Below, one piece after another: positions 2,542 to 29,069 of a stretch of 29,069 nt of DNA. The stretch's first letter is position 1, and every line of letters begins with the position of its first letter. The notes below the pieces were generated by a model. That model worked only from the letters and a program-made list of their open reading frames with translations, did no database searches and was not told where the DNA came from. The position numbers were made by a program, and so were the translations under genes. This DNA is from a virus (lineage: Duplodnaviria > Heunggongvirae > Uroviricota > Caudoviricetes): the IMG/VR virus record IMGVR_UViG_2541047595_000013; one strand, given 5' to 3'.

Positions 2542-2587
2542 ACCATTATAGAAGGATCCAACGAAAATAATAGATTTATTAGTGCAT

Positions 2588-2797
2588 TTATTGTGAGTCT
2601 GGCTGGTTAGTGGCCATGAGATATTCGATTGTGTCAGTGAGATCATCCAGGTCGTCTTGGGTGATGCGGTACTCCTGATTGGATATCTTTGAGTAGTGTT
2701 CAGCAATGGCGCGGGCAGCGTCGGTTTCGGCGGGGTCTACAGATAAAGCGTTAGAGCAATGTCTAACGTCGTCGATGGTTGGTGGAATGAAAGCCAT
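2588..2797 (-). CDS. coi: C1 inactivator Coi-like protein (69 aa)
   Basis: 69-aa ORF immediately upstream of c1 on the same strand, matching the remembered P1 coi-c1 arrangement and size. Confidence 0.7.
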   Translation of the reverse strand: MAFIPPTIDDVRHCSNALSVDPAETDAARAIAEHYSKISNQEYRITQDDLDDLTDTIEYLMATNQPDSQ

Positions 2798-3036
2798 AAT
2801 TATGCCTCACTGTATTGACAACACAGAGCCTGAAGCTCTGACCTACTGTTTCACCCATGATCCATGCTGGGGTAATCTAACAACATTGCGCTGTGTGTAA
2901 GATGAGCAATGCATAGCTGTAATGCCGTTGTATAAGGTTTCCCTGTTTGCTCATTTCCTTCTGAGCCGCTCTACAACGCTGAAGACACATTAAATAGTGA
3001 ATCCAAAGTCGTATTACGAAACGGCGGCAAAACTAT

Positions 3037-3052
3037 AATTTATTAGAGCAAT
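3037..3052 (-). promoter_or_regulatory. C1 operator (Op99-type), minus orientation
   Basis: Reverse complement reads ATTGCTCTAATAAATT, matching the remembered asymmetric C1 operator consensus ATTGCTCTAATAAATTT. Confidence 0.7.
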
Positions 3053-3118
3053 TGTCAAACAACTATGAAAAACAATCCAGTTTTTGGCTGGTGGAGTGGG
3101 ATTTTTCTCTCAAAATTT

Positions 3119-3135
3119 ATTGCTCTAATAATTCT
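3119..3135 (+). promoter_or_regulatory. C1 operator (Op99-type), plus orientation
   Basis: ATTGCTCTAATAATTCT; 13/17 identical to the C1 operator consensus; paired with the oppositely oriented site at 3037-3052 upstream of coi/c1. Confidence 0.65.
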
Positions 3136-3178
3136 TGATTTTTATGCGCAGCTGGACGTAAACTCCTCTTCAGACCTA

Positions 3179-3212
3179 ATAACTTCGTATAGCATACATT
3201 ATACGAAGTTAT
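3179..3212. other. loxP: loxP site-specific recombination site (Cre target)
   Basis: Exact 34-bp sequence ATAACTTCGTATA-GCATACAT-TATACGAAGTTAT (13-bp inverted repeats, 8-bp asymmetric spacer), about 420 bp upstream of cre. Confidence 0.97.
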
Positions 3213-3231
3213 CTTAAGGGTTATTGAACAT

Positions 3232-3304
3232 GATCAATTTACCTGTAAATCCATACAGTTCAATACCTTATCAGGTCAAATAGTGATCACTTGATCATTT
3301 GATC
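3232..3304. promoter_or_regulatory. cre regulatory region with clustered Dam (GATC) sites
   Basis: Four GATC sites within 73 bp (3232, 3285, 3293, 3301) between loxP and cre; cre promoters are reported to be Dam-methylation sensitive. Confidence 0.55.
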
Positions 3305-3401
3305 AAGGTTGCGCTACGTAAAATCTGCGAAATGTTGGCAGTGTTAGTGCTCCAGATTTCGCGTAGCGCACTTAGCACCACCAATCAATCAGAGGTGAAA
3401 A

Positions 3402-3623
3402 ATGGGATATTCAGCTGCTAAAGTGTCCACTCATCTTGAGCTTGAGAAAAACCGTGGTTACTGGCGGGCAAAAGGGTTTGATCGTGATAGTTGCCAACTG
3501 TCATTATCGCGCGGTGAAGAGAAAATAGAACGCACGCGCGGTCGCTGGCGTTTCTATGACGAGAACCATAAACAGGTAAAGGCAGAGCCGATCCTGTACA
3601 CTTTACTTAAAACCATTATCTGA
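3402..3623 (+). CDS. Hypothetical small basic protein (73 aa) between loxP and cre
   Basis: ORF with a strong SD (GAGGTG) about 7 nt before ATG; stop lies 8 nt before the cre start codon. No recognisable family. Confidence 0.35.
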   Translation: MGYSAAKVSTHLELEKNRGYWRAKGFDRDSCQLSLSRGEEKIERTRGRWRFYDENHKQVKAEPILYTLLKTII

Positions 3624-3630
3624 GTGTTAA

Positions 3631-4662
3631 ATGTCCAATTTACTGACCGTACACCAAAATTTGCCTGCATTACCGGTCGATGCAACGAGTGATGAGGTTC
3701 GCAAGAACCTGATGGACATGTTCAGGGATCGCCAGGCGTTTTCTGAGCATACCTGGAAAATGCTTCTGTCCGTTTGCCGGTCGTGGGCGGCATGGTGCAA
3801 GTTGAATAACCGGAAATGGTTTCCCGCAGAACCTGAAGATGTTCGCGATTATCTTCTATATCTTCAGGCGCGCGGTCTGGCAGTAAAAACTATCCAGCAA
3901 CATTTGGGCCAGCTAAACATGCTTCATCGTCGGTCCGGGCTGCCACGACCAAGTGACAGCAATGCTGTTTCACTGGTCATGCGGCGGATTCGAAAAGAAA
4001 ACGTTGATGCCGGTGAACGTGCAAAACAGGCATTGGCGTTCGAACGCACTGATTTCGACCAGGTTCGTTCACTCATGGAAAATAGCGATCGCTGCCAGGA
4101 TATACGTAATCTGGCATTTCTTGGGATTGCTTATAATACCCTGCTACGTATAGCAGAAATTGCCAGGATCAGGGTTAAAGATATCTCACGTACTGACGGT
4201 GGGAGAATGTTAATCCATATTGGCAGAACGAAAACGCTGGTTAGCACCGCAGGTGTAGAGAAGGCACTTAGCCTGGGGGTAACTAAACTGGTCGAGCGAT
4301 GGATTTCTGTCTCTGGTGTAGCTGATGATCCGAATAACTACCTGTTTTGCCGGGTCAGAAAAAATGGTGTTGCCGCGCCATCTGCCACCAGCCAGCTATC
4401 AACTCGCGCCCTGGAAGGGATTTTTGAAGCAACTCATCGATTGATTTACGGCGCTAAGGATGACTCTGGTCAGAGATACCTGGCCTGGTCTGGACACAGT
4501 GCCCGTGTCGGAGCAGCGCGAGATATGGCCCGCGCTGGAGTTTCAATACCGGAGATCATGCAAGCTGGTGGCTGGACCAATGTAAATATTGTCATGAACT
4601 ATATCCGTAACCTGGATAGTGAAACAGGGGCAATGGTGCGCCTGCTGGAAGATGGCAATTAG
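3631..4662 (+). CDS. cre: Cre tyrosine site-specific recombinase
   Basis: 343-aa protein recognised essentially residue-for-residue as P1 Cre (MSNLLTVHQNLPALPVDATSDEVRKNLMDMFRDRQAFSEHTWKMLLSVCRSWAAW…), with the catalytic tyrosine-recombinase C-terminal region. Confidence 0.98.
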   Translation: MSNLLTVHQNLPALPVDATSDEVRKNLMDMFRDRQAFSEHTWKMLLSVCRSWAAWCKLNNRKWFPAEPEDVRDYLLYLQARGLAVKTIQQHLGQLNMLHRRSGLPRPSDSNAVSLVMRRIRKENVDAGERAKQALAFERTDFDQVRSLMENSDRCQDIRNLAFLGIAYNTLLRIAEIARIRVKDISRTDGGRMLIHIGRTKTLVSTAGVEKALSLGVTKLVERWISVSGVADDPNNYLFCRVRKNGVAAPSATSQLSTRALEGIFEATHRLIYGAKDDSGQRYLAWSGHSARVGAARDMARAGVSIPEIMQAGGWTNVNIVMNYIRNLDSETGAMVRLLEDGN

Positions 4663-6020: not shown

Positions 6021-6662
6021 ATGGATAAGAAAATATGCGTTGTTTCGATGAGCGTCGGCAAACCGGCGTCAATGACTGCTGCATGGATCAACAACGAGCT
6101 GATAATGGCTGAGCGGACCAGCTACCCTGAACGCCGCCGCGACATGGAACTCCAGCTGCTGCGCGAATTGCGAGAAAAAGAGGAAAAGGGTTTTATCGTG
6201 CTGGTGGAAGAGGAAAACAGCTTTATTACTGGTCGAGTTGGCCAGCGTGTAAGGTTGCGCGATCCCTTCATGAACGGCAGGCCGGTACTGATTGAAGCAA
6301 TGCAGATTTACAAGGAGCTGGAACGCCAGAAAGCGATCAAGTTACCGCGCAAGGAATCCGGCAAATACATCCTCCACCAAAGCATCTTCGATTCCGAACA
6401 CGATAAAAAAGGCGATGAATTTTTCAACATCAACTGGAGCGAAATAACGACAGAGCATGTTCTGACGTTACTATGTTGCTTTGCGACGGAATACAACAAC
6501 GTTGCCAGCGCCGACTACATCAGGGCAATGGCTGGAGAAGTTGAAGCCCGCCAGGAACCATCGTTACTAAGTCCACTTATTAACATAATTCTGGGTACCC
6601 AGACACTGGAACAAAAAAAAGTGCCGAAAGGGGTATTAACAGGCAAGCATAATTATTTCTAA
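6021..6662 (+). CDS. Hypothetical protein (213 aa); by position corresponds to P1 mat
   Basis: ORF following ref on the same strand; internal ATG at 6021 (MDKKICVV…) preferred over the track start at 5994. Synteny-based only. Confidence 0.45.
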   Translation: MDKKICVVSMSVGKPASMTAAWINNELIMAERTSYPERRRDMELQLLRELREKEEKGFIVLVEEENSFITGRVGQRVRLRDPFMNGRPVLIEAMQIYKELERQKAIKLPRKESGKYILHQSIFDSEHDKKGDEFFNINWSEITTEHVLTLLCCFATEYNNVASADYIRAMAGEVEARQEPSLLSPLINIILGTQTLEQKKVPKGVLTGKHNYF

Positions 6663-6828
6663 TAATTTATAGTGGGGACTTTTGATGGTGTAAAACCCCA
6701 TGAATTATTATTTTTTAGTTTTTTGATTCTATTTTTTTTTGCATTACCCGTCATAAAAATGAGCTTGCTTACATAATAGAAAATTATTTTATCAACACTA
6801 TTACAACAAACGATTATCACTGATAACA

Positions 6829-6852
6829 TGAGTCCTTTGAAAACAAAGGACT
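6829..6852 (+). repeat. Perfect 10-bp-stem hairpin (gagtcctttg-aaaa-caaaggactc) 10 nt upstream of the GNAT start codon
   Basis: Read directly from the sequence. Confidence 0.6.
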
Positions 6853-6861
6853 CACCATACT

Positions 6862-7470
6862 ATGTCTAATACCTCGGCAAATGAAATTGTACCGCACTTA
6901 CCGCTAATTTTCGAAAATGAAGCTAATGGGATTCTTCAGGATCTGGCCTATACTCCATCGCTTATGGGGTTGATGATGTTCCCGACAGAAGAGGAGCTGA
7001 AAGCAGCGAGAAGCTACATAATTAACGTTTTTGAAGAGTGTTACCGAGCCGGTCATTTGCGCATTATGGGCTTTACTAATGAAGAAAACTTGTTCGGATA
7101 CGCCTTAATCTTCGGACATCCATCGGGAAATTTTCCGTTGTACTGTCATAAAATATATGTATATGAGCAATATCGTGGTAATGGACTTGGAAGTAATATA
7201 CTGGCAGAAATACTTGCATTTCCAAATGAGGTCGCTTTGATTTGCCAGTCTGATTTGGTTCCTTTTTATGAATCAGCCGGAATGCACTTTAAAGGAAATT
7301 ACACCACTCCATCAGTCGCCAATTTCAAAAAAACTCGCGGCATGTATGAGGGGCTTTGTTTGATGAGCACTGAAAAAAATGCAAACTCTAATGGTGTACC
7401 TATATTCATGCTGAACGATAACGATATTGATAACATCATACAGGCTATCGCATCATCGGCACCACGATAA
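6862..7470 (+). CDS. GNAT-family N-acetyltransferase (202 aa), lone gene in an AT-rich segment
   Basis: Contains the GNAT acetyl-CoA-binding motif Q-x-x-G-x-G (YVYEQYRGNGLGSNILAEIL) followed by a FYESAGM motif-B-like segment; flanked by AT-rich DNA; on the opposite strand to surrounding backbone genes. Confidence 0.65.
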   Translation: MSNTSANEIVPHLPLIFENEANGILQDLAYTPSLMGLMMFPTEEELKAARSYIINVFEECYRAGHLRIMGFTNEENLFGYALIFGHPSGNFPLYCHKIYVYEQYRGNGLGSNILAEILAFPNEVALICQSDLVPFYESAGMHFKGNYTTPSVANFKKTRGMYEGLCLMSTEKNANSNGVPIFMLNDNDIDNIIQAIASSAPR

Positions 7471-7525
7471 TATTAATAATTCATCTCGCCGCAGGAACTA
7501 CAAACCAGTTGATTGTTTGTGAAAC

Positions 7526-7543
7526 GCCCGGTGCAAACCGGGC
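7526..7543. terminator. Hairpin (GCCCGGT-GCAA-ACCGGGC) between the convergent GNAT and lxc-position genes; possible bidirectional terminator
   Basis: Perfect 7-bp stem; no strong U-tract on either strand. Confidence 0.35.
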
Positions 7544-7552
7544 CAACAAAAC

Positions 7553-8271: not shown

Positions 8272-10908
8272 TTATGCGTATTGTTGGATGACGGCCAGAA
8301 CGTCCGCCACGTTGTGTTTTGTCTCGATAATCCACCAGTTACCTGGGAAGTCGCTGTTCTTCGCCTTCGCTGGCAACCAGCGAGCGCCGAATTTCGCCTT
8401 GATTGCGTCTTTCGCACGGAAAAGAACCCCTTTCATGCCGGAGGCTTCCTGAAGCCCAAATACCTCGCCAGCGGCGAATTTTGGTGCGTACATCATCTTC
8501 AGGTCGGCGGTGGATACGCGATAATTCAGACCAAGAGACTGAGCTATGCTGGTGGCATCACCCTGTATTGATGATAACTCTTCTTGTTTCTCGTTTCTGG
8601 CAGCAATTTCTTCCTCCGTGATGTTGCCAAGGGCCAGGTTTATCCGATCAGCGTCTGCCTGTTTCTCTTCATCGGTGCGCCCGGCAAGTACCGTGTTAAT
8701 TCTGTGCAATATCTCCACATGATTCTTGCGCATGCTGAGCAATTCCGGCGTAACCTCGTTAAGGTCCACCAGCCCAAGGATGGCAAGGTCGGTAAACATT
8801 GATACCAGGTTGTAGGTCATGCGATAGCTGAGTTGCCCATAGGCTGATGGCAACTGCACCGCATCCATTTTATAGGCATCCATAAATTTAGAGCCGTCGT
8901 TTACGACATCCGCAATTGCCGGTGTGATTTTCCCTGTGGTGGCGGCCTCCCTGATTGCTGTTACCCACGATTGAGTCAGCGCGGCGACTGCATGATTCAG
9001 ATTGGCTTTCCGTTCTGCTGCAATGCGCGCGCTTGCTGCGTCCATTGTCTGCTTGATCTCGTCTTTATTGCTGTAAATGCCAATGGTGCCAAACTGTGCT
9101 GTGGTGATCTCATAATCTGACGCCCGGAACTCATTGGTACCGAAAATGGCATTGGTGACTTCAAGTTCAGAATCCCCGTTACGAGTAGCCCCCTGGCTTG
9201 TTTTTTCCGGCATTCTGGCGATCGCATCCGCTATTTTCTCCTGAATTGCTTCAGGGGATAGCGTATCTCCGTATGACGCGATTACATCGCCATAATTGGA
9301 GCCAAACAGTTCAACCAGGAATGTTTCTGCCGAACGGATCTGGCGGTTATTCCCTTCCGACATCATACCAAGCACCCATTTTGCAATTGACGACTTCAGC
9401 GCGCTGTCACGGCGATCCGGGTAAACCGCATGCTTCAGTGGGTCCGTATAGGTACCAACAAAATCAATGCTATAGCCTGACTCTGTAGTCTGAACGCCGT
9501 ACGAGTCAGTTATTTTGATCATGCCGCGCTGCTGGAAACGGTAGAAATCGTCACAGGAAATGATGTCGTTAATCCCGGCGATGGAGACGCCACCACTGAT
9601 TTTCTGCATAACAGCATCTTCATCGGGAGTTACATCCACCTGTTTATCCAGCGTCTTCACATCCCAGTTACCCGATTTGGTGCCTTTGAAGGTAAAGATG
9701 ATCTCCACGTCTGCGCGCTGGCTGTCGAAGTCCAGCGACTTAATGCGAACGATATCACCGGCATAATCGTAGTATTGGCCTACACGCCATGAGCGATCGC
9801 CGATAACAAGGAACTCACTCGCATGGTTTACCAGGTCAGGATCAACATCCAGAATGCCTTTATTTAATGCATCCTCCACCAGCGGGCGCAGGCGTTTGAT
9901 ATCCGTCGCGGCCTTCTGAGTACGGTTCAATAATTTCTCATAGCGGGAGATGGCTTGAGAGATATTAGCCTTGCGCTGAATGGCGCTTTTCAACGACGCG
10001 CGATACTGTGCTAACAACATACGGTCTGTGTGATGGACACTCCCCCAGCGTGCCTTCCAGTCTGCGTTATCCGCTGCCTTGGCCATTGCCGCCTGTTTGA
10101 ATTTAGCTACCTCGGCGGTGGTCTTTTCAAGTTCCGCTTTGCTTCGCTCCAATTCAGCGGTAAGTACCTCCACATCCTCACCAGCTGCGTGCTGCGCCTT
10201 GATGTAGTTCTGAAGGTCGATAGTAGCCTGTTCTTTCTGGCGAGCGCGTTTCGCAGCTTTCGCCTTATCCATTTGAACCTGCATCATTGCCAGACGTTCG
10301 CCGTCATCCTTCGCGGTATACATCTGCATTTCGATCATATCGTTGGCGTCGGCGTTCTCCATTTCTGACTTATCTGAACGGAGGATATCGGAGATCCAGC
10401 CTGCTTTACGCTTCAGCGTCTTCAGTCGGTATTCATCGAAAGACCCCTTGCCGCAGTAGTAGTGAACGCGAACGCTTGCACGGTTGGAGCCAACTCGGGC
10501 ACCGCGACCGTTTCGTTGCGCAATACTGGCTGGAGTCCATGGCAACGTCAGATGATGGATGTCAGTCGTTCCTCGATGCAGGTTGATACCCACCTCTGCC
10601 TTTTTGTTGCAGATGATGATCGGAGTCCGGCCCTCCTGGAAGTCGGCTGCAATCTTTTCCAGACCGCCCAACGACATTTCATTTTGCTGCGCGATATAGG
10701 CGTCATACAGAGCCATTTGCTCGTTGTATTTCGCTATCTGTGCATCTGTTGGTTCATCCGGTAACTCTTTCGGCGGTTTAACCGCTTTCAGTTTCTTACC
10801 GGTTTTACCTGCCTCGGCAACCGTCTGAGCATTCAGTATCCCCACCTTTGAAGGTTCAAGGTTAAGAGCATTGCAGATAATGCGCTTGAGCTTCTGGTGC
10901 TGCGTTTT
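8272..10908 (-). CDS. darB: DarB C-terminal portion (helicase C-terminal region), separated from the N-terminal portion by a frameshift
   Basis: Contains helicase motif VI-like TLPWTPASIAQRNGRGARVG. The frame is open upstream of the first ATG to the frameshift point at about 10905-10909; the two portions together give about 2,256 codons, matching the remembered size of P1 DarB (2,255 aa). Confidence 0.8.
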   Translation of the reverse strand, partial: KTQHQKLKRIICNALNLEPSKVGILNAQTVAEAGKTGKKLKAVKPPKELPDEPTDAQIAKYNEQMALYDAYIAQQNEMSLGGLEKIAADFQEGRTPIIICNKKAEVGINLHRGTTDIHHLTLPWTPASIAQRNGRGARVGSNRASVRVHYYCGKGSFDEYRLKTLKRKAGWISDILRSDKSEMENADANDMIEMQMYTAKDDGERLAMMQVQMDKAKAAKRARQKEQATIDLQNYIKAQHAAGEDVEVLTAELERSKAELEKTTAEVAKFKQAAMAKAADNADWKARWGSVHHTDRMLLAQYRASLKSAIQRKANISQAISRYEKLLNRTQKAATDIKRLRPLVEDALNKGILDVDPDLVNHASEFLVIGDRSWRVGQYYDYAGDIVRIKSLDFDSQRADVEIIFTFKGTKSGNWDVKTLDKQVDVTPDEDAVMQKISGGVSIAGINDIISCDDFYRFQQRGMIKITDSYGVQTTESGYSIDFVGTYTDPLKHAVYPDRRDSALKSSIAKWVLGMMSEGNNRQIRSAETFLVELFGSNYGDVIASYGDTLSPEAIQEKIADAIARMPEKTSQGATRNGDSELEVTNAIFGTNEFRASDYEITTAQFGTIGIYSNKDEIKQTMDAASARIAAERKANLNHAVAALTQSWVTAIREAATTGKITPAIADVVNDGSKFMDAYKMDAVQLPSAYGQLSYRMTYNLVSMFTDLAILGLVDLNEVTPELLSMRKNHVEILHRINTVLAGRTDEEKQADADRINLALGNITEEEIAARNEKQEELSSIQGDATSIAQSLGLNYRVSTADLKMMYAPKFAAGEVFGLQEASGMKGVLFRAKDAIKAKFGARWLPAKAKNSDFPGNWWIIETKHNVADVLAVIQQYA

Positions 10909-13900
10909 TCATCGGTGAAGATGATTTGCTTACCTTCCGGGAAAAACTCCTTCAGCGTGGCAATCAGCTTCGCGTATTTGGGCGTAACGGGGTGAGTTAC
11001 GGTCTGTTCGTCAATGCCAAACCTGGCCAGGCGCTTATTCACTTCCTGCTCGAACGCTTCCGGAACCTGCAACTGAATAAACTCGCCCTTATCTATCAGG
11101 GAGTATTGCGATTGCTGCGTGATTGAATCATCACTGTCGTCGTCTTCGCTGGTGGCTTGTTTAGGCAAACTGTCCGCCAGCTGCTGCACCGCATCGGCGT
11201 ACTCCGGCAGGAAACGATAGGTGATCCGGCGATAGTACAGGTCCATGTCAGTACATACGCGGTCCATATCCCTGATTATTGAGAAGATCGGACGGGCTTT
11301 CTCGTGCTCAATCACGCCGTCTTCATTGACCGAGGTCGTTACGCCATTGTTGGCTTTGGCCGCCGCTTCCGCCTGCTGACGCAATTCTTCATACGCCGCC
11401 AGTTGTTCTTCAGTAAGTGGTGCATCCTGCTGGTGTTCGTCCAGCTCCGGGATCTCCACGGTATCCTTAACGTCTTCCGCCGTTTTAAGCGTTACCCAGC
11501 GATGGAATATACCGCGCAGCGCATCAAGGTTTTCAAAGCCCACCAGCGCCATTTTTTCTTCAACTTCACCGCTAATTTTCTGTACCGTTTCCAGCCTGGT
11601 CTTGCCGAAGAATTTAACGAAGTCATCAGGACCGTAGATCCCCATGTTCTGCCAGTATTCCTTCGGCAGAACATGAGAAAGCATGTTGTATGCATCGATC
11701 GGGGTGTTAACGACTGGCGTTGCAGTCAGGAGAACCGGCCCGCGCCCACCATTCTTTTTCATCAGGTACGCGTTTTTAATTGCCATATCTCGCGCCGATT
11801 GCGCCACCGCGCTGGTGGGCAGATAGGCCAGTTGTGACGCTTCGCGACCATTTTTATAGCTATTGCGGTAGTTGTGACCTTCGTCAGCGATCACACTATC
11901 GAAGCCCATATCCTCAAAGTACGGATACTTCTCTGCTTTTTCGGTGCCGGTATCTGAATACTCCGACAATACCCGGCGACGCGCGGCCTCTTTGCGGTGG
12001 GAGTCGGAGTCCATTGCGCTGGCTACGCGTCCGGCGGCAACGAAGTCATAAAGCATATCCTGTGCATGCTCATCTACGGTGTCATCACGTAGCGGAATGC
12101 GGGCGTATTGTTCTTTGGTAAACACGACTGCACGGTAATTTGAGTGCGGGATCGCGTTCATCCGCGCCGTGATAGTGGCTTCATCTGCCAGCTTAAGAGC
12201 ATCGCGCATAACTGGAGTGCCATCAGTACCAAGAACAGGTTTACCGTTCTCATCGAGCACCTGCACCTGGCGAATCTGATCGCCATCCATCAGCACATCA
12301 AGACCGACGAACAGGTAGTTACTGAATGCCTCTTCACTCAGGAATTCTTTTGCTTCGTAATACCAGTTTTCCAGCACTGATTTAGGCACTACATACGCAG
12401 TACGGGTGGAGCGACCGTTCTCATAGTTGAACGCCTCAAGCGCCAGCGCGGTCGTGGTTTTACCCAGCCCGGTGCCGAAGCCCAGGATGCCGCGCCCATC
12501 TTCGGACAGTCGGCGCACCTCGCTATTCTGGTAATCAAATGGCTGGCGCTTACCGCTTAATCCCTTCAACCCAAGCGGATCGCCAGAGTGTTCATACGGG
12601 ATATTGCTATTGAACACATCGTTGTATTTGGCAACCAGCTCATCGTAGCGATCGTGCGTCTTGATCCACTTATTGAACTGGTCCTCAAGCAGTGCCATCT
12701 GCTCGCGGTAGCCGTTCGCCGTCGCGCTATCTTTGCCACCGATACGCGCACCATTGAGATACTTTTCCAGCTGTGCCGGGAACCCGGTCGCGTTTTCACC
12801 TGATTTACGGTCCCACTCGTAGCGAATCTCACCTGTTTCTTTATCCTTGCGCTGGACGACACCGTATCGGTGCCCGACGAACAGACCATCACCACCGTGA
12901 TAGGTGTCAGAAACCATTTCGTCGCCTTCCAGCTGCACTGACTGCACATAGCGCAGATCCGGATAGCCGTTTTCCTGCAAAAATTCCAGAATGACGGAAC
13001 GGTCGAACCAACGGCTATTGAGCTTAAACCGGATATTCTCTGCTGGCGTCTTGATGCGCTTCTCTTCGATAGCTGCCAGCTGATTAAGGACGTTGTTCTT
13101 TACTGGACCGTCGGGGAGTGTGGCAAGGAATTCCTGTTTTGGTGCCACTATCTCGTTAATGTCGCCGCTGGTGGCGCGGGCGAACGGAAAAATCCCGCCA
13201 TACGGTGAAACCGCAATGCCAGGGGTGCTGGCCAATAAATTAAGCAACTCGTCATCACTGGCTGGCAGTTCGCCGGTAAACGCAAGGCGGAAATCATCGA
13301 GCTGGATTGGATCGCGAGTGAGATCACTGTAGAGATAACGCAGGGTGTCCTGATAGCTGGTGGAGTCATAACTGGCGCTGGAATCATGCGTAACCAGTTT
13401 TCCTGTCAGCTCGTCAGAAATAGTGCCATCCAGCTTAATTGCACCACGGAAAGCAAACCAGGCGCGCGCACCGCTCCCCGATAATTTCGCTATCGGACCG
13501 CGACCGGGGTTACCAAAACGGTCAATCTCTGCCTGCAAACGGGATACCAGAGAAAGGCGCTGCTGTTCGATTTGTTCAGCACTATGCCCGGCGGCCTTCA
13601 TGTCCTGATATTCAATTAACATCCGGCCAATCATCGCCCCGCGATACAAGCGTTCACGGTATTTTTCAGGCTGGCTGTTAATCCAGTCCACCAGCTGCAC
13701 CATATCGTCGCTGATTGATGTGGTGTATTTATCGCGGACATTTGCCATCTGGGTAAATGTCATACCGAGACGGCCTTCTGTTGTAGTCAGGTTACGCTGA
13801 AGAGCCTCCCAGCTGTCCGCGCCATAACTGGCAACATCAATCTTCAGCTCCTTCCCTGCATCAGATTCAATCCAGCGACCACCAGCATATTTTTGCCATA

Positions 13901-15038
13901 CGCCATTAATCAGGCGCATTTCCCCTTCATCAACAACGTCTGCGGTCGGTGACGGTTCAGCCATATTGAGCAAAGACCAGTCGATACGACTTTCGAAACG
14001 ATGAATCAGCTTCGCTTTAAGAGCCTGGTTATCAATCTGCCCGTCGGCACGAACCTCAATACGCCCCTGGAATCCCTTCTCCTGGGTGCCATGAACAAAC
14101 CGGCGACCGTCCTTTTCAAACCACTTGCCAGAAATAAACGTTGGCCAAAGCACATTTGCCGATTCGAGAGTGCTTTCATCCACCAGGGGGATTTTCTCAG
14201 CCATCTCTGCCGGATGTTTGCGCATCAGCACCACATCTACGACCGTACTGGTCCCGTTAGCGTCAAAAGTACCGGTAGGCAAGCGGTGGGCACCAAGAAA
14301 TTCAGCTTTCCGTGATAGGCGCAGGCGTAACCGCTTCATGTTTGAACCTGAAACAATGGACGGCGGCACAATCACGCACATGAATCCGCCTGGCTTTATC
14401 TTGTCCAGCATGCGGAGCATGAAGTAAGAACCCATGTCCGTTTCTTCTGCGTAAGGCTTATCGATGTTGCGTGTGTTATCACGACCACCGAACGGAACGT
14501 TACCCACAACATGGTCGAATGAATCGTTAGGCGTGCTTACAGCCAGTTGTTCGAACGGAGAAATCTGTACGCTGTCTTCCGGGTGCAACAGCTGGTTTAT
14601 ACGACCGGAAACACTGCTGATCTCAGTCGCGGTCATCACCGTACCAACCGGTTTTGTCTCATTAAAAACGCCGGTTCCCGCCGATGGTTCCAGAGTGTTA
14701 CCTACGTCCGCGCCGTAGAGCTTCATGATCTCCCAGACACCTTCAGCGATCGGCTTTGGTGTGTAATATTCGGAGACGGACCCGCCAATGCCGCCTTCGC
14801 CGGTGTACCCAGCCAGGATCTGGCGCTGTTCATCTGTCAGTGTCGCGCCGTCCACCAGCGAATTAAGCAAATCTATCGCCTTCTGATTCGCCTCCCGGCG
14901 TAGTCGGTCATAGCTTTTGCCTTCCACCTTTTCCACGCCGTATCTAATCGGCGCTCGGTGAGATGTTATTGCCCTAATGTATTTCAATATTTCGCTGACA
15001 CTTGAACAGCGAAACACCCCCATAGATAGCTTGTTCAT
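10833..15038 (-). CDS. darB: DarB N-terminal portion (N6-adenine methyltransferase-like domain plus helicase N-terminal motifs)
   Basis: SAM-binding-like LEPSAGTGVF and motif-IV-like GNVPFGG; helicase motif I GFGTGLGKTTTALAL and motif II DEGHNY. The last 23 codons (RSTRSSSALSAMLLTLNLQRWGY*) are out-of-frame read-through after a 1-bp loss in an A5 run. Confidence 0.8.
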   Translation of the reverse strand: MNKLSMGVFRCSSVSEILKYIRAITSHRAPIRYGVEKVEGKSYDRLRREANQKAIDLLNSLVDGATLTDEQRQILAGYTGEGGIGGSVSEYYTPKPIAEGVWEIMKLYGADVGNTLEPSAGTGVFNETKPVGTVMTATEISSVSGRINQLLHPEDSVQISPFEQLAVSTPNDSFDHVVGNVPFGGRDNTRNIDKPYAEETDMGSYFMLRMLDKIKPGGFMCVIVPPSIVSGSNMKRLRLRLSRKAEFLGAHRLPTGTFDANGTSTVVDVVLMRKHPAEMAEKIPLVDESTLESANVLWPTFISGKWFEKDGRRFVHGTQEKGFQGRIEVRADGQIDNQALKAKLIHRFESRIDWSLLNMAEPSPTADVVDEGEMRLINGVWQKYAGGRWIESDAGKELKIDVASYGADSWEALQRNLTTTEGRLGMTFTQMANVRDKYTTSISDDMVQLVDWINSQPEKYRERLYRGAMIGRMLIEYQDMKAAGHSAEQIEQQRLSLVSRLQAEIDRFGNPGRGPIAKLSGSGARAWFAFRGAIKLDGTISDELTGKLVTHDSSASYDSTSYQDTLRYLYSDLTRDPIQLDDFRLAFTGELPASDDELLNLLASTPGIAVSPYGGIFPFARATSGDINEIVAPKQEFLATLPDGPVKNNVLNQLAAIEEKRIKTPAENIRFKLNSRWFDRSVILEFLQENGYPDLRYVQSVQLEGDEMVSDTYHGGDGLFVGHRYGVVQRKDKETGEIRYEWDRKSGENATGFPAQLEKYLNGARIGGKDSATANGYREQMALLEDQFNKWIKTHDRYDELVAKYNDVFNSNIPYEHSGDPLGLKGLSGKRQPFDYQNSEVRRLSEDGRGILGFGTGLGKTTTALALEAFNYENGRSTRTAYVVPKSVLENWYYEAKEFLSEEAFSNYLFVGLDVLMDGDQIRQVQVLDENGKPVLGTDGTPVMRDALKLADEATITARMNAIPHSNYRAVVFTKEQYARIPLRDDTVDEHAQDMLYDFVAAGRVASAMDSDSHRKEAARRRVLSEYSDTGTEKAEKYPYFEDMGFDSVIADEGHNYRNSYKNGREASQLAYLPTSAVAQSARDMAIKNAYLMKKNGGRGPVLLTATPVVNTPIDAYNMLSHVLPKEYWQNMGIYGPDDFVKFFGKTRLETVQKISGEVEEKMALVGFENLDALRGIFHRWVTLKTAEDVKDTVEIPELDEHQQDAPLTEEQLAAYEELRQQAEAAAKANNGVTTSVNEDGVIEHEKARPIFSIIRDMDRVCTDMDLYYRRITYRFLPEYADAVQQLADSLPKQATSEDDDSDDSITQQSQYSLIDKGEFIQLQVPEAFEQEVNKRLARFGIDEQTVTHPVTPKYAKLIATLKEFFPEGKQIIFTDEKRSTRSSSALSAMLLTLNLQRWGY

Positions 15039-18678: not shown

Positions 18679-18810
18679 AAAGACCTCATAAGCGAATTTT
18701 TTACGCTCCAGGACAACACCCATTCACAGCCAATACCGACTGACTCGATCCCTTTAGAAGGCACAGGATAATGCAAATCACTTGTTAGCTACGTTTCAAA
18801 GATATACATT

Positions 18811-19532: not shown

Positions 19533-20321
19533 ATGACAGCACAAAAAACTAAAACCATTCAATACCGCCTACGTAATGGCCAGAGTGTCGAAGTGACCAT
19601 CAATAATGATGGAGTACCTGGCGAAAAAGTTTCTATCTCTGATCTGGCTATCGAAAAAACCATCATGTGCCACCTTGGCTTTACTGAAGAAGTGAGCAAA
19701 AAGCATGGTGTAGCAATCTGGAGCGCAATGGATACTGGTATGCGCAAATTCATTACTGCTCGTACCCCAGGGATGACCATGATGGACCTCATGCAGATTG
19801 CGCCGCTGTTTGAATGTGAGCCTTTAGATGTATTCAGCAATCCAGCTATCTGCCAGCAGTTATATGGTGAGATGAAACTCGCGGTTACCCCCATTGTGCT
19901 GCATGAAGGATCGCTTGCTGGCGTGTGGAAAGTAGAGCGTATTTCAAGCTACATGCCTTTCCATGTCAACGGCGTAATCACTGGTGAAAATCAACCTGTT
20001 TCCGTTATAAAGTCAGACCTCAAGCGCGCAATTCTTGAAGCAAGTTGTCGAGTTGTCGGGCTGGGCAAACAGTCTTATGTTTCCTTCCCGGCTGGCCCTG
20101 AAGGCCCGGCAGAAATTCTGATTATGGATGCCGATCTGCTCTGGCAAATACAGTTTCTGATTGGCAAAAGCATCATCCGCGCTGAAGAACTCGATCAGTA
20201 CATTACCTGCACGATGACGGATGAAGTCAAAAGTGTGGCTATAGCCAATGCCCGGAACCTATGTCGTGCTGCATTAACAGAACTGCAAGAAAACACCACG
20301 GAAGAAGTGGAAAGCGATTAA
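19533..20321 (+). CDS. Hypothetical protein (263 aa); by position corresponds to P1 isaB
   Basis: ORF downstream of ssb; ATG at 19533 has SD GAGAAAAG, preferred over the track start at 19413. Confidence 0.5.
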   Translation: MTAQKTKTIQYRLRNGQSVEVTINNDGVPGEKVSISDLAIEKTIMCHLGFTEEVSKKHGVAIWSAMDTGMRKFITARTPGMTMMDLMQIAPLFECEPLDVFSNPAICQQLYGEMKLAVTPIVLHEGSLAGVWKVERISSYMPFHVNGVITGENQPVSVIKSDLKRAILEASCRVVGLGKQSYVSFPAGPEGPAEILIMDADLLWQIQFLIGKSIIRAEELDQYITCTMTDEVKSVAIANARNLCRAALTELQENTTEEVESD

Positions 20322-20326
20322 AAAAA

Positions 20327-20350
20327 ATCCCGCCGATTGGCGGGATTTCT
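20327..20350. terminator. Bidirectional intrinsic terminator (ATCCCGCC-GATT-GGCGGGAT with A7 upstream and T-rich downstream)
   Basis: Perfect 8-bp stem between convergent ORFs 19533-20321 (+) and 20351-20659 (-). Confidence 0.6.
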
Positions 20351-20659
20351 TCAATATACGATCTGGTCTACATGATCACCAAAATCATCGTCGTCGTCCT
20401 CATCGCCACCATCTACTGCTGGCCAATCAACAAACCAGCCAGCGTAAAGATGCAGCGTTCGGAGAACATCACTTGCGGGAGCATCAAGGGTGTTAACGAA
20501 TCCCATATAGCTATTGGGATTTGCTCCAGCTATGGCTTCAGCGATCATGTCCTCGGTAATGTCACCGGAGATAATGCTTAAACGCCCGGAAACTTCTTCA
20601 TTATCATCAAATTCGATAATGGCATCTCCGCCTAATGGCGCTGCGATTTTAATCTGCAT
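20351..20659 (-). CDS. Hypothetical 102-aa protein with poly-acidic C-terminal tail; last gene of the dar operon (P1 hxr position)
   Basis: ORF overlapping the ddrB stop; C-terminus DGGDEDDDDDFGDHVDQIVY. Synteny-based. Confidence 0.45.
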   Translation of the reverse strand: MQIKIAAPLGGDAIIEFDDNEEVSGRLSIISGDITEDMIAEAIAGANPNSYMGFVNTLDAPASDVLRTLHLYAGWFVDWPAVDGGDEDDDDDFGDHVDQIVY

Positions 20660-23648: not shown

Positions 23649-24014
23649 TTATGCTGCCTCTTTAATGTTGGCGGCTATCCATGCCGCCGTGTGCTGTTTA
23701 ACCTGGTCCAGGTCGATGTATGTGCCAACATATTGATTCAAATCCTGCAAGGTACCGATAAATGCATCGGTGCTCTGATCGACGAATTTATCAGCCAGGA
23801 AATCAGCAACCAGTTTTGGCACACCATCATGTTCCGAAGGTTGTTTTTCCTCGCCACTACCACCGCCGGACGCGCCGTACCCCATCTGTTGCATGATCTG
23901 GTCAATTTCATCGCTGATATCCAGCAACTCCATACCACTCGCGGTAGCCGCTTTGGACATCAGAGCATCCAACTTATCGCTGAGATCCATTAACTCAATA
24001 GCTGATAGTGTCAT
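23649..24014 (-). CDS. DdrA-position protein (121 aa)
   Basis: Small acidic ORF immediately downstream of darA, overlapping its stop. Synteny-based. Confidence 0.5.
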   Translation of the reverse strand: MTLSAIELMDLSDKLDALMSKAATASGMELLDISDEIDQIMQQMGYGASGGGSGEEKQPSEHDGVPKLVADFLADKFVDQSTDAFIGTLQDLNQYVGTYIDLDQVKQHTAAWIAANIKEAA

Positions 24015-25930
24015 GCCGCTACCCCCGCTTTCTGGATTGCTACCAACAGATCAGCCAGGTGGCGAGCTGCGCCGTTAACCAGCTCTTCGTTTTCCTCAAA
24101 ACGTCCGGCAGCCTGAAGGGCTGCAATCGCTTCCCGGACATTGCCCCGGGCGTTACGGATCTCCGCCATGTCAGTGCTTTGCATATCCATCACGTTATTG
24201 AGATATTCAATGGCTTTATTAGCCTCTGCATCTGCTTCGCTAACCGTTTCATCAGGCTGTGCCGGGGCCGGTTCTGGCTGAGTAATCTCACCGACTTCGG
24301 CCTGCAATGCATTGATCATGCTCTGCACCATTTTCTCGGTGCCAGCGCCCCCAGGAAACGCAATATTGGGGAAAGTTTTTTGAAACTGAGTTTTCAGCAT
24401 TACGCGGAACTCGTCTGGTGAGCTGGTGGCCAGCTCCAGAGCTTTTTGTGCATATTTGCCAAACGGACCATTAGTAAGTGTCTTCGCCAGGAAATCGAAA
24501 GAATCCTCGCGAGGCAATAACTTCAGGTCGTACTCACTCATTTGCTGATCAGAAAGCGGGGTATCGTAAGTAGCAATGCCGTAGCGTGCATATTCATAAT
24601 ACGGGTCACCTTCATCAGGGCGCGGCAGAATTGCTTTGTTACCTTCAGGTATTGCGCCAGGGGCCGCCGGACGCATTTGCAGGGCATATCGATATGCACC
24701 TACAGAGACTTCTGGTTCAGGCGAAGAGCTACCGGTATCCTCCGCTGGTTCAGGTTCGACGTTTTCCGGTTTATGTTCTTCTGGTTGGACCAGGTATTCC
24801 GATACATTACCCGCTTTATAGGCTTTAAACAGCTTGCCGATCGCATCTGCCATGTCCACACCCTGTATGGATTTAGCCTTGATCATGTATACGCTGCCAT
24901 CCGGATCGGTTAACTGGATATACCCTTCGCCGTCCCCAATGAATTGCTTCATTGATGCACCATTACTGAGCGTCGCTTCCCCGTCCATATGCATACGATT
25001 TTTGATACTGGCAAGGCGATCCGTCAGCGCGCGAGAGTGCCCACCAGTCATCCCCGCAGGGGCAATGGTATCGCGCCCACCAGTGCGATTGAGCCGATCA
25101 ATCTCCCCCTGCAAACGCTCATTCTCTTCATAAAGAGAATCCGCTTCCGATGCAACAGCGTTAATTTTCTGCTCCAGATCTGCCTTCTGCCCTTCTACCG
25201 CTGCCACCTGATCCGCGAGGTCGCTCATGGCGTCCTCTTTCTGGTCACTGTCAGCCTGTAGTTGGGTTATTTCATCAACAAGGGCTTTTTTCTTCTTCTG
25301 CGCACGCTGGAATTTTGCCGAGTTTTTCTCTGCAAGGTTGGCAAGTTTCATGGTGACCTGCGCCAGCGTCATATCACGTCCACTCATCGGAGCAACGGTG
25401 TGAGTAACGTCTTTTTTATTCAGTAAGAACTGGAAAGCAACCAGCGTATCGCTATTGGTGATCCGGTTTTCCGCTGTCGGGCTATGAAACAGAATGCTGA
25501 TAGTCTGACCATCACTGAGCGGAATAATGGCTGGCAGGACCGGCAGCCCGTTAACGTTACGTGCCCGGCCAATTTCAGCCCCGCCGATCGCGCGTGCACC
25601 GTTCTGGGCCACATCCCCCGTTTTATCACTCCCCGCAGAGATTCCGGTACCATTCAGCTTCTGGTTCAATGCCCGGACAAATGCCTGCATGGTCCGGTGT
25701 AACTGCAAACGAGTAGAACTAATCGCCTCCAGTAAATCCGTAGCACACCAGTGGATTGGCGTGTCATAGAAGAACGTAGCCTCGATTTCCTCCAGGGTGT
25801 TGGATTCCGTCATCAGATAGCGGTCCTCACCGGCCATTAATGCGCGATATTCATCATCAGTCACTGGCGGGGGAAGCACGTCAAGCCCAGGCTTGATCGT
25901 CACCCCTTTATTGATATTGAACTGTTCCAT
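24011..25930 (-). CDS. darA: DarA-like internal head protein precursor (639 aa), antirestriction system component
   Basis: 639-aa ORF, matching the remembered length of P1 DarA; located in an operon with lydA/lydB upstream and ddrA/ddrB downstream; coiled-coil-rich central region. Confidence 0.75.
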   Translation of the reverse strand: MEQFNINKGVTIKPGLDVLPPPVTDDEYRALMAGEDRYLMTESNTLEEIEATFFYDTPIHWCATDLLEAISSTRLQLHRTMQAFVRALNQKLNGTGISAGSDKTGDVAQNGARAIGGAEIGRARNVNGLPVLPAIIPLSDGQTISILFHSPTAENRITNSDTLVAFQFLLNKKDVTHTVAPMSGRDMTLAQVTMKLANLAEKNSAKFQRAQKKKKALVDEITQLQADSDQKEDAMSDLADQVAAVEGQKADLEQKINAVASEADSLYEENERLQGEIDRLNRTGGRDTIAPAGMTGGHSRALTDRLASIKNRMHMDGEATLSNGASMKQFIGDGEGYIQLTDPDGSVYMIKAKSIQGVDMADAIGKLFKAYKAGNVSEYLVQPEEHKPENVEPEPAEDTGSSSPEPEVSVGAYRYALQMRPAAPGAIPEGNKAILPRPDEGDPYYEYARYGIATYDTPLSDQQMSEYDLKLLPREDSFDFLAKTLTNGPFGKYAQKALELATSSPDEFRVMLKTQFQKTFPNIAFPGGAGTEKMVQSMINALQAEVGEITQPEPAPAQPDETVSEADAEANKAIEYLNNVMDMQSTDMAEIRNARGNVREAIAALQAAGRFEENEELVNGAARHLADLLVAIQKAGVAA

Positions 25931-25931
25931 G

Positions 25932-26543
25932 TTAATTTCCTGCTTTCAGTTGCTTAAGACGGCGTTTGAGTTCGCCATTTCGGGCCTTTTCGTTATTGAG
26001 TCGGCCTGTCTCCTTATCCAGCTTCGCCCGCAAATCAGTGATCTGCTGTTGATTGAAAGACACCGAGTTCTGCGCTGATTTATAAGCGGCAACCACCTGA
26101 GCATTCCGCTGTTTTGCCTCTTGCAGGCGCTGAAAGTTGGATTTTACTGCCGGTTTCTTGTCTACCGGATTGGCAACACGTTTCGCTTTGGCGATCAGTG
26201 ATTTCTGGAATTTTGCGGAGTTTTTGCGGGCCGCTTGCCCCATGACGGTACCAAGCGTCTTGATATCCGGCGACTGAGCGTTAGGAATAGCTTTTCCATT
26301 CAGCCTCACAGACGATATATCGCCAGTATCGTTTACCTGTATGGCAAGAATTTGTCCGTCGTTAAGAACCAGCTTTGCGGTTTTAACTTTAACGCCATCT
26401 TTCGTTGTTGCGCGGTTGCTGGAGTCAACCTCAATTACCGTAACACCGGTTTTATTGATCGCCGCGATAAGGGATTTCAGCCCCTTTTCATTAACCTGGT
26501 CAAAATCGACCGTTGCATACTTATTTTTCGTCATCTGACACAT
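25932..26543 (-). CDS. Hdf-position protein (203 aa)
   Basis: ORF between lydB and darA; basic coiled-coil C-terminus. Synteny-based. Confidence 0.5.
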   Translation of the reverse strand: MCQMTKNKYATVDFDQVNEKGLKSLIAAINKTGVTVIEVDSSNRATTKDGVKVKTAKLVLNDGQILAIQVNDTGDISSVRLNGKAIPNAQSPDIKTLGTVMGQAARKNSAKFQKSLIAKAKRVANPVDKKPAVKSNFQRLQEAKQRNAQVVAAYKSAQNSVSFNQQQITDLRAKLDKETGRLNNEKARNGELKRRLKQLKAGN

Positions 26544-26964
26544 CCTGTGCGAGATTTATTACGTAACTTCTGCGGATTTGCTGAGTAACAGGGAAAATCC
26601 GATACAACGGGTTAATGAACGAGTCGCCATGCGTAACCATGACGTTGAAATGCCACAGTCGCTCTCCTTTACCCATATATTCAGTGGGTATGTACAACCA
26701 TTCACTGTTTTCGCCCTGTTCAGCCGACGTCAAACAACGTTGTTCGCCTTCAATCACTGTCGTCGGCTTCTGAACATCGCGGATCCAATATCTGACCGTT
26801 GCGCCGCGCAAAAACGGGAATTTAGACCGGTATTTGAACGGCACCCGGATGAAACCCGGTTTAATTTCCACATCACCAAGTTCTAAATGCGTGATGTCCT
26901 TGCGTTTTAGCAAATAGCGATCGGCTAAGGCTAACGCAAGAACGCATACACCCCAGCCAATCAT
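26521..26964 (-). CDS. lydB: LydB-like antiholin (147 aa)
   Basis: Second gene of the operon, overlapping the lydA stop; size matches the remembered P1 LydB. Confidence 0.65.
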   Translation of the reverse strand: MIGWGVCVLALALADRYLLKRKDITHLELGDVEIKPGFIRVPFKYRSKFPFLRGATVRYWIRDVQKPTTVIEGEQRCLTSAEQGENSEWLYIPTEYMGKGERLWHFNVMVTHGDSFINPLYRIFPVTQQIRRSYVINLAQDVSDDEK

Positions 26965-27290
26965 TTCCCGCCTCCCTTTTTCACCAAACTTGTAAGAACA
27001 TTCAGAATGCTATCGATATTCACTCGTTTCATCCCTGAAATCACCTCATGACCGTTATTGCTGGCTATCGTTACCATTAAGTACGTAATTGATAACTCCC
27101 AGCCCTCGTGTTGCCCCAATAGGTACGCCACCGCGCCAGCTGTCACTGCAACAAAGATCTCCGTAACCAATCCCAACAAATTGCCAGACTGGCGACCGTC
27201 TCGGACATCCATCAGGAACGTGCCTATCCCACCAATTACTGAAAGCAGGAGCGCAATAGCAACTGGAGCTAATTCCTGTGTGTCAAGCAC
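26961..27290 (-). CDS. lydA: LydA-like holin (109 aa)
   Basis: Small protein with hydrophobic transmembrane segments (VAIALLLSVIGGIGTFL; EIFVAVTAGAVAYLLG); GTG start preceded by SD AGGAGG; first gene of the operon. Confidence 0.7.
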   Translation of the reverse strand: MLDTQELAPVAIALLLSVIGGIGTFLMDVRDGRQSGNLLGLVTEIFVAVTAGAVAYLLGQHEGWELSITYLMVTIASNNGHEVISGMKRVNIDSILNVLTSLVKKGGGK

Positions 27291-27520
27291 AAGTTCCCTC
27301 CTACGTTGTCAGGAGGTAATGGTATGCAAAGTAACTTCTCAACCGGTTATGTTGCATAAGAGACTTACCTATTCAACCGACTTTTGGAACCTTCAATAAT
27401 AAGCCTGCTATTGGCGCTGAAAATAAGAACCATGCAGCTCTGAAGGCTTTCATTCATATCCTTATATGAACCGCCCCGGGAATCCTGGAGACTAAACTCC
27501 CTGAGAAAGAGGTAAACAGG

Positions 27521-27847
27521 ATGACTAAAAATACACGTTTTTCCCCCGAGGTCCGTCAACGGGCAGTTCGTATGGTTCTGGAAAGTCAGGGCGAATATGA
27601 CTCACAATGGGCGGCAATTTGTTCCATTGCCCCAAAGATTGGCTGTACACCAGAGACTCTGCGTGTGTGGGTTCGTCAGCATGAGCGGGATACCGGGAGT
27701 GGTGATGGTGGACTCACCACCGCTGAACGTCAGCGTCTGAAAGAGCTGGAACGTGAAAATCGTGAACTGCGCCGCAGTAACGATATCCTTCGCCAGGCTT
27801 CCGCTTATTTTGCGAAGGCGGAGTTCGACCGCCTCTGGAAAAAATAA
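27521..27847 (+). CDS. IS3-family transposase OrfA (helix-turn-helix / leucine-zipper part)
   Basis: 108-aa protein [22 protein letters not shown]… recognised as IS629/IS1203 OrfA; ends in an A6 run overlapping the orfB start. Confidence 0.9.
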
Positions 27848-28734
27848 TGCCGCTGCTGGATAAGCTGCGTGAGCAGTACGGGGTCGGACCGGTATGCAGT
27901 GAACTGCATATTGCCCCGTCAACGTATTACCACTGTCAGCAACAGCGACATCATCCTGATAAACGCAGTGCCCGTGCTCAGCGCGATGACTGGCTGAAGA
28001 GAGAGATACAGCGCGTATACGATGAAAATCATCAGGTGTACGGTGTGCGTAAAGTCTGGCGCCAGTTGTTACGCGAAGGTATCAGGGTGGCCAGATGTAC
28101 AGTGGCGCGCCTCATGGCGGTTATGGGACTTGCCGGTGTTCTCCGGGGTAAAAAGGTCCGTACTACCGTCAGCCGGAAAGCCGTTTCCGCAGGCGACCGC
28201 GTAAACCGTCAGTTCGTGGCAGAACGTCCTGACCAGCTGTGGGTGGCTGATTTTACTTACGTCAGCACATGGCAGGGCTTCGTCTATGTGGCGTTCATCA
28301 TTGATGTGTTTGCCGGATGTATCGTGGGGTGGCGAGTCTCATCGTCTATGGAAACGACATTCGTGCTGGATGCACTGGAGCAGGCGTTGTGGGCCCGTCG
28401 GCCGTCCGGCACAGTCCATCACAGTGATAAAGGTTCTCAGTATGTATCACTGGCCTATACGGAGCGACTAAAAGAAGCAAAACTGCTGGCATCAACAGGG
28501 AGTACAGGTGACTCGTATGACAACGCGATGGCGGAGAGCATCAATGGTCTTTACAAAGCGGAGGTAATACACCGTAAGAGCTGGAAAAACCGTGCAGAAG
28601 TGGAACTGGCCACACTCACGTGGGTGGACTGGTATAACAATCGACGATTGCTGGGAAGGCTGGGTCATATCCCTCCGGCAGAAGCAGAAAAAGCTTATTA
28701 TGCTTCCATCAGAAACGATGATCTGGCAGCCTGA
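27847..28734 (+). CDS. IS3-family transposase OrfB (DDE integrase catalytic domain)
   Basis: 295-aa protein with an rve-type DDE core (WVADFTYV … HSDKGSQY … ESINGLYKAE); overlaps orfA in the -1 frame, as in IS3-family programmed frameshifting. Confidence 0.9.
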   Translation: MPLLDKLREQYGVGPVCSELHIAPSTYYHCQQQRHHPDKRSARAQRDDWLKREIQRVYDENHQVYGVRKVWRQLLREGIRVARCTVARLMAVMGLAGVLRGKKVRTTVSRKAVSAGDRVNRQFVAERPDQLWVADFTYVSTWQGFVYVAFIIDVFAGCIVGWRVSSSMETTFVLDALEQALWARRPSGTVHHSDKGSQYVSLAYTERLKEAKLLASTGSTGDSYDNAMAESINGLYKAEVIHRKSWKNRAEVELATLTWVDWYNNRRLLGRLGHIPPAEAEKAYYASIRNDDLAA

Positions 28735-28736
28735 GT

Positions 28737-28943
28737 TCACAGATAAAACACTCTCCAGGAAAACCGGGGCGGTTCATATAATTCCGCGAGATACATGCCA
28801 ATAAAGCCAGCAAGTACGGCGGAAATACATTCGTCCAGCAATTTCTTGCATGAAGACTCGTAACGGTTTTCACATAGCCCACTCAAATACGAATACACCC
28901 CACCAAGAAGGGATAACATCACGATATGTACATAAAATGTCAT
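28737..28943 (-). pseudogene. Small hydrophobic ORF truncated by the IS insertion (native about 55 codons, then about 13 codons read from the IS terminus)
   Basis: ORF starts at 28943 and runs into the IS right end (28776), so its 3' end is IS-derived; predicted membrane segment (HIVMLSLLGGVYSYL; AVLAGFIGMYLA). Confidence 0.35.
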
Positions 28944-29069
28944 TTTTTACCTATACAACAGTAAGTTGAACAACATTTGGGCTTTGTTGAATAAATCAGA
29001 TTTCGGGTAAGTCTCCCCCGTAGCGGGTTGTGTTTTCAGGCAATACGCACGCTTTCAGGCATACCTGCT

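Follow-up and report, generated by a model that had tools for sequence, protein, structure and literature searches.

Probable insertion of IS629 into the holin gene lydC of a P1-like plasmid prophage that keeps the late promoter of its dar operon

The 29,069-nt stretch of DNA analyzed here (hereafter, the window) very probably holds a P1-like plasmid prophage in which IS629 has inserted into codon 55 of the holin gene lydC, whereby lydC is truncated, LPdar as the late promoter of the dar operon is preserved, and lysis would be delayed modestly at most. Judged by its sequence similarity, the host element is a Punavirus: positions 2500-27466 match SJ46, 813R1, RCS47, P1, and P7 over 89-96% of the length of this region with an identity of about 98%. 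Alignment to the annotated relatives identifies the target gene as lydC, cut after codon 54 of 87. The element itself is entirely conventional, and its insertion is a routine and apparently strain-specific one.

The IS629 element and its junctions

The complete IS629 copy (IS3 family; 27467-28776, transposase genes on the plus strand) is exactly 1,310 bp long by direct reading of the sequence, starting with TGAACC and ending with GGTTCA. Its left inverted repeat (IRL, 27467-27491, plus strand as read, starting with TG) pairs with the reverse complement of the right one (IRR, 28752-28776, ending with CA) at 22 of 25 positions, in a pattern of 13 identical, 3 mismatched, and 9 identical positions on which the direct reading and a repeat search agree. 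Both transposase genes are on the plus strand: orfA (27521-27847, 108 aa) encodes the HTH DNA-binding part (Pfam HTH_Tnp_1, E 1.4e-12), and orfB (27847-28734, 295 aa when taken as an ATG-started ORF) the DDE catalytic part (Pfam HTH_21, E 5e-18, and rve, E 1e-25). They share a single base just past the A6 slippery run at 27839-27844, orfB being in the -1 frame relative to orfA. This run lies inside a full-length match to the Rfam model of the ALIL pseudoknot (RF01497; 27802-27918, plus strand; 120.9 bits against a gathering threshold of 50, E 2.3e-32), the frameshift-stimulating element of the IS3 family. A -1 frameshift at A6 is thus predicted to yield the OrfAB transposase, and identical copies of the element in RefSeq carry the label "programmed frameshift". 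The length of about 1.3 kb, the TG...CA ends, the imperfect repeats, and the combination of an HTH orfA with a DDE/rve orfB are all traits of the IS3 family. These results bear out what an earlier sequence-only reading of the window had described as a complete IS629-like element with TG...CA ends, imperfect repeats of about 25 bp, and orfA/orfB overlapping at an A6 run.

Over its full length, the copy is 100% identical to IS copies of several E. coli genomes, among them O145:H28 and O103:H2, the chromosomal O145/O103 copies being annotated as "IS3 family transposase", and 4,486 database records hold at least 80% of its 1,310 bp. With 1,310 bp matching at 100% identity end to end, a chance origin of the match is excluded by far. 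Identity to the phage JLK-2012 copy annotated as IS629 transposase is 99.5%, and to the copies annotated as IS629 in VT2-Sakai and CP-1639 it is 95.4-95.6% (95.6% for VT2-Sakai). It is ISfinder practice to regard elements with at least 95% identity as isoforms; at this nucleotide threshold, with the named annotated copies as reference, the element in the window belongs to IS629. IS629 is an IS3-family element of Shigella and EHEC E. coli, and IS1203 and IS3411 are isoforms of it. The element here has the same length, orfA/orfB organization, A6 run, and ALIL pseudoknot as the IS629 of these hosts, and copies annotated as IS629 or IS1203v in Stx phages are 95-99.5% identical to it. It differs from the known copies only in its location in lydC and in a junction one base longer than a 4-bp duplication.

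The element is flanked by TATA on the left (27463-27466, direct reading) and by TATA plus one extra A on the right (28777-28781, with TATA at 28777-28780), the extra A being absent from uninterrupted alleles. Such alleles read CCTTATATTCC in P1, in 813R1, in 30 plasmid records among the matches listed, and in 12 IMG/VR contigs. When aligned with these relatives, the window reads CCTTATA, then the IS, then TATAATTCC. Its surplus over the empty site amounts to 1310 + 5 nt, i.e., the TATA duplication and one A at 28780/28781. The empty site was also reconstructed by deleting the IS with one TATA and joining the flanks into a query of 766 bases, which was then searched. The joined flanks align continuously (query 1-766) with 99.5-99.7% identity to uninterrupted P1-like phages and plasmids, and in 358 plasmid records the match extends over at least 80% of the reconstructed site; each subject among the matches listed spans 765 bases per 766 query bases. 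Removing the IS with 4 nt leaves lydC frameshifted, and only the removal of the IS with 5 nt restores its frame. Since the sequences flanking IS629 are contiguous in the relatives, a single-site insertion in lydC is indicated and not a rearrangement. The sequence-only reading had proposed a simple transposition event with a 4-bp target duplication. The TATA on both sides is real and the event was indeed single-site, but the empty site reveals five surplus bases, so that the duplication needs to be qualified by one extra base.

The odds are about even that the junction is not a clean product of transposition, the extra A being either a homopolymer-length error of the assembly or left behind by a secondary event, for instance imprecise joining or slippage at a later time. 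Five surplus bases exceed the target duplication of 3-4 bp reported for IS629 (PMC3271280). Duplications of 3 bp or of 5 bp were also considered as the source of these bases, and neither gives the observed flanks; the alignments are explained most economically by TATA plus one A. An exact-pattern scan was set up so that a match could come from the left IS junction or from an uninterrupted allele that has the extra A. The latter had no matches in IMG/VR, GTDB genomes, or JGI metagenomes, while a control scan with the normal empty site hit 12 IMG/VR contigs and none of the GTDB representative genomes, so that the zero for GTDB is uninformative. An A6-to-A5 change elsewhere in the window, which frameshifts darB, likewise speaks for this reading. 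Against it, only four 1-nt indels relative to P1 were counted over about 23 kb, a number at odds with an assembly riddled with homopolymer errors. The identity of the IS and that of its target gene do not depend on the extra A.

In the mechanism that we propose, an active-looking IS629 would have jumped into codon 55 of lydC by means of OrfAB, made by -1 frameshifting at A6 with the ALIL pseudoknot as a stimulator. IS3-family elements transpose by copy-out/paste-in through a circular intermediate, and from this family knowledge the same route may be expected for the copy in the window.

The interrupted holin gene and the IS903 end upstream of it

Both parts of lydC are on the minus strand. The 5' part (28782-28943) comprises codons 1-54 with both hydrophobic segments and matches Pfam Phage_holin_3_3 at model positions 2-52 of 78. 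The 3' remnant (27365-27466) comprises codons 55-87 and the stop codon, the latter at 27365-27367, between LPdar and the left end of the IS. Joined together, they restore a LydC of 87 aa, identical at 85 of 87 residues to the annotated LydC of phage vB_EcoM-813R1. The gene also has the same synteny as in P1, P7, and 813R1, directly upstream of LPdar and lydA. In P1, P7, and P1-like plasmids, lydC encodes a small LydA-type class II holin with two TMDs (Phage_holin_3_3) at the same position as here, whereas in the window it is split at codon 55, with an IS903 end 36 bp upstream. The allele is of the 87-aa 813R1 type, as opposed to the 93-aa type of P1. The insertion had been said to truncate a gene for a small hydrophobic membrane protein, and alignment to P1-like annotation now gives this gene its name, the holin gene lydC.

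The lydC reading frame now runs from 28943 to 28737 and stops 37-40 nt inside the right end of IS629, so that 54 native codons are followed by 14 non-native residues in a 68-aa hybrid. The cut falls behind the second hydrophobic segment. The hydropathy profile retains the stretches at residues 1-21 and 34-54, and the 33 lost C-terminal residues of 87 include a third one at 64-79. The truncated ORF still passes the Pfam cut-off for Phage_holin_3_3 (29.6 against 28.4 bits). As the truncated LydC keeps both main hydrophobic segments, it may not have lost its function completely. Across the element, at its left end, a 64-aa minus-strand ORF (27365-27559) is predicted to start with a TTG in the left end of IS629 and to continue in frame into the 3' remnant of lydC.

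The biology of lydC in P1 suggests mild consequences. According to Bednarek et al. (2022, PMC9025707), the gene is found there "immediately preceding the dar operon" and forms a monocistronic unit, for which a separate early promoter is putative. LydC is described as a canonical but accessory holin whose cloned gene is lethal, and lydC knock-outs of P1 still lyse E. coli and Enterobacter cloacae, merely with a delay (PMC9025707). A CRISPRi knock-down of lydC gave an efficiency of plating of 1.1, and the gene was scored as non-essential (PMC10695390). The expected phenotype of the interrupted prophage would be at most a modest delay of lysis, as in the P1 lydC mutants, while antirestriction functions expressed downstream of LPdar should not be affected. 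The promoter of lydC could not be located in the relatives by a sigma-70 consensus scan; shuffled sequence gave at least as many matches. In an operator search, neither the window nor 813R1 or P1 showed a C1 operator close to lydC; P7 alone carries an annotated, weak Op(lydC) upstream of the gene.

The P1-like homology stops at 28979 and gives way to the end of an IS903, an element of the IS5 family (28980-29069, minus strand), of which 90 bp are included before the window ends. This end, overlooked in the earlier reading, is identical at 90 of 90 positions to the IS903 of HK022. The match begins with the first annotated base of the HK022 element, including its terminal GGCTTTGTTGAATAAATC. IS903 is a 1,057-bp element that has terminal inverted repeats of 18 bp and duplicates 9 bp of its target. 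The 9-bp sequence expected as the duplication in this case is CAACATTTG, with the far side beyond the end of the window, and the IS903 is either a neighboring second insertion or a breakpoint left by a deletion or rearrangement. It ends 36 bp upstream of the lydC ATG, with its transposase gene on the minus strand and directed toward lydC. Since 36 bp of native upstream sequence are too short for a full promoter and leader, lydC has probably lost its own promoter, from which the IS903 end would separate it.

Against this background, it might be supposed that IS629 remodels lydC rather than kills it, and that the 68-aa hybrid acts as a deregulated holin or toxin expressed by read-through from the IS903 transposase gene. 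The retained hydrophobic residues 1-21 and 34-54, the holin match above the Pfam cut-off, and the orientation of the transposase gene are compatible with such a role. We nevertheless regard it as quite improbable, because the hybrid is devoid of 33 of the 87 residues, including the hydrophobic stretch 64-79, because native sequence upstream of lydC extends over only 36 bp, and because the lethality of cloned lydC (PMC9025707) implies that constitutive expression would be counter-selected.

The dar operon and its late promoter

Late promoters of P1 consist of a -10 hexamer and a conserved 9-bp inverted-repeat box centered near -22, are devoid of a -35 element, and depend on Lpa; the lpa gene itself is not within the window. 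LPdar (27319-27337, minus strand) is intact: the -10 hexamer (27319-27324) reads TACCAT and the -22 box (27329-27337) reads AAGTTACTT, both identical to the features annotated in P1 and P7. In the GenBank records of P1 (NC_005856; AJ000741, the entry for the darA operon) and P7 (AF503408), LPdar is annotated in the interval that separates lydA from lydC, 29-47 bp upstream of where lydA starts. Over 27250-27347, a stretch that covers LPdar base for base, the window matches P1 with 100% identity. Relative to the IS, whose left end is at 27467, the promoter is on the side of lydA and 129 bp away. Downstream of it on the minus strand are the first gene of the operon, lydA (26961-27290), encoding a 109-aa holin (Pfam Phage_holin_3_3 and P1 annotation), then lydB (26521-26964), encoding a 147-aa antiholin (Pfam LydB, E 8e-104), followed by hdf (25932-26543) and darA (24011-25930), both assigned by annotation and domain comparison with P1. 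The genes ddrA and ddrB are also to the left of IS629 and on the minus strand. The dar operon (lydA, lydB, hdf, darA, and so on) thus keeps LPdar, whose function in this prophage is predicted from sequence identity alone, and IS629 should leave the late expression of the operon unchanged.

As to the arrangement, the distance of 176 bp between the IS and the lydA start (27467 versus 27290) and the orientation of the transposase genes opposite to lydA, as given by the sequence-only reading, were both reproduced. Its regulatory corollary, namely that the insertion had separated the lysis/dar operon from a promoter farther upstream, fails, as LPdar falls inside the interval 27291-27466, which the same reading had named as the one where a promoter would speak against it. 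That IS629 silences or mistimes the lysis and antirestriction genes by cutting the operon off from an upstream promoter is accordingly very hard to credit. Its appeal comes from the proximity of an element oriented away from lydA, which would block transcription entering from lydC. It is opposed by the annotation of P1 and P7, where LPdar separates lydA from lydC, by the complete conservation of this promoter at 27319-27337, and by the transcription of lydC as a separate monocistronic unit, with lydA and lydB being expressed from the late promoter (PMC9025707). Moreover, the homology of P7, RCS47, and Ro157c2YLVW to the window ends at about 27351-27359, so that the sequence farther upstream is not shared even among phages with the same lydA/LPdar block; P7-type phages retain this block although unrelated sequence follows from about 27359 on. 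If any read-through from lydC into lydA exists in the wild type, it would be lost here, while an operon served by LPdar remains the far better account. The regulatory inference is hereby corrected, the dar/lysis operon having its own late promoter and the interrupted gene being lydC.

Distribution, likely host, and other differences from P1

The junction of IS629 with lydC was not found in phages, PLSDB plasmids, complete E. coli genomes, IMG/VR, GTDB genomes, or JGI metagenomes, the pattern of the left IS junction giving zero matches in the last three collections. Megablast of positions 27100-29069 against PLSDB and all complete E. coli genomes did not yield a single locus with 80% or more of the query covered. 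The nearest parallel is the P1-like plasmid p08_4347-1 of E. coli O111:H8 (NZ_CP077546.1), in which an IS1203 of the IS629 group is inserted in lydB (positions 2555-3768). There, too, an IS629-group element has hit the lydC-lydA-lydB cassette of a P1-like plasmid, and the host is an EHEC strain. In contrast to the window, the IS1203 sits in lydB, downstream of LPdar and within the operon, and is only about 96% identical to the element here; judged by these differences, it represents an independent event. P1's resident IS1 between isaA and isaB offers a looser parallel, being likewise a natural IS in a non-essential region with viability kept (P1 annotation; PMC10695390), albeit of another family, at another site, and absent from the window.

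IS629 favors prophage targets and accumulates in EHEC prophages (PMC3271280), a tendency with which the insertions in the lysis cassette agree. Since identical IS629 copies are abundant in EHEC/STEC-type genomes, an E. coli strain of this type is the likely host. It might further be asked whether the prophage is undergoing IS-driven erosion of its accessory lysis and antirestriction functions in an IS629-rich, EHEC-type host, where the loss of lydC could even be positively selected. The reasons for this are that lydC is hit twice (IS629 inside and IS903 36 bp upstream), that darB is frameshifted, and that the sister O111:H8 plasmid carries IS1203 in lydB; selection is conceivable because lydC is an early-expressed, intrinsically lethal holin gene on a plasmid maintained in the lysogen. 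We consider such an erosion rather unlikely and put it forward tentatively. For anyone using or inducing this P1-like element, the presence of at least two IS elements around lydC together with a frameshifted darB is of relevance. Patterns of IS629 sites are used in the typing of EHEC lineages, and a plasmid-borne, apparently strain-specific site like the present one could be a marker. Beyond annotation, the insertion has little significance.

Several other differences from P1 were recorded in the window. The darB gene (8272-15038, minus strand) is split into two overlapping ORFs of 1,401 aa (methylase and the N-terminal part of SNF2) and 857 aa (the Helicase_C part) by a 1-nt deletion in an A6 run (about 10904-10909), as compared with the 2,255-aa darB product of P1. 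Either darB is genuinely a pseudogene here, or the length of the homopolymer is in error. Between mat and lxc/ulx, where wild-type P1 has the res/mod restriction genes, a segment of about 1 kb (6531-7548) is without a match to the del-res del-mod reference of P1 and contains an ORF (6862-7470, plus strand) for a 202-aa acetyltransferase of the GNAT family. At 20321-20353, both the IS1 of P1 and isaB are absent, and the isaA-like sequence leads straight to hxr. Paired +1/-1 differences from P1 are located at 18697 and 18714, near the 5' end of lyz, whose ORF extends over 200 aa here when started from an upstream ATG, as compared with 185 aa in P1.
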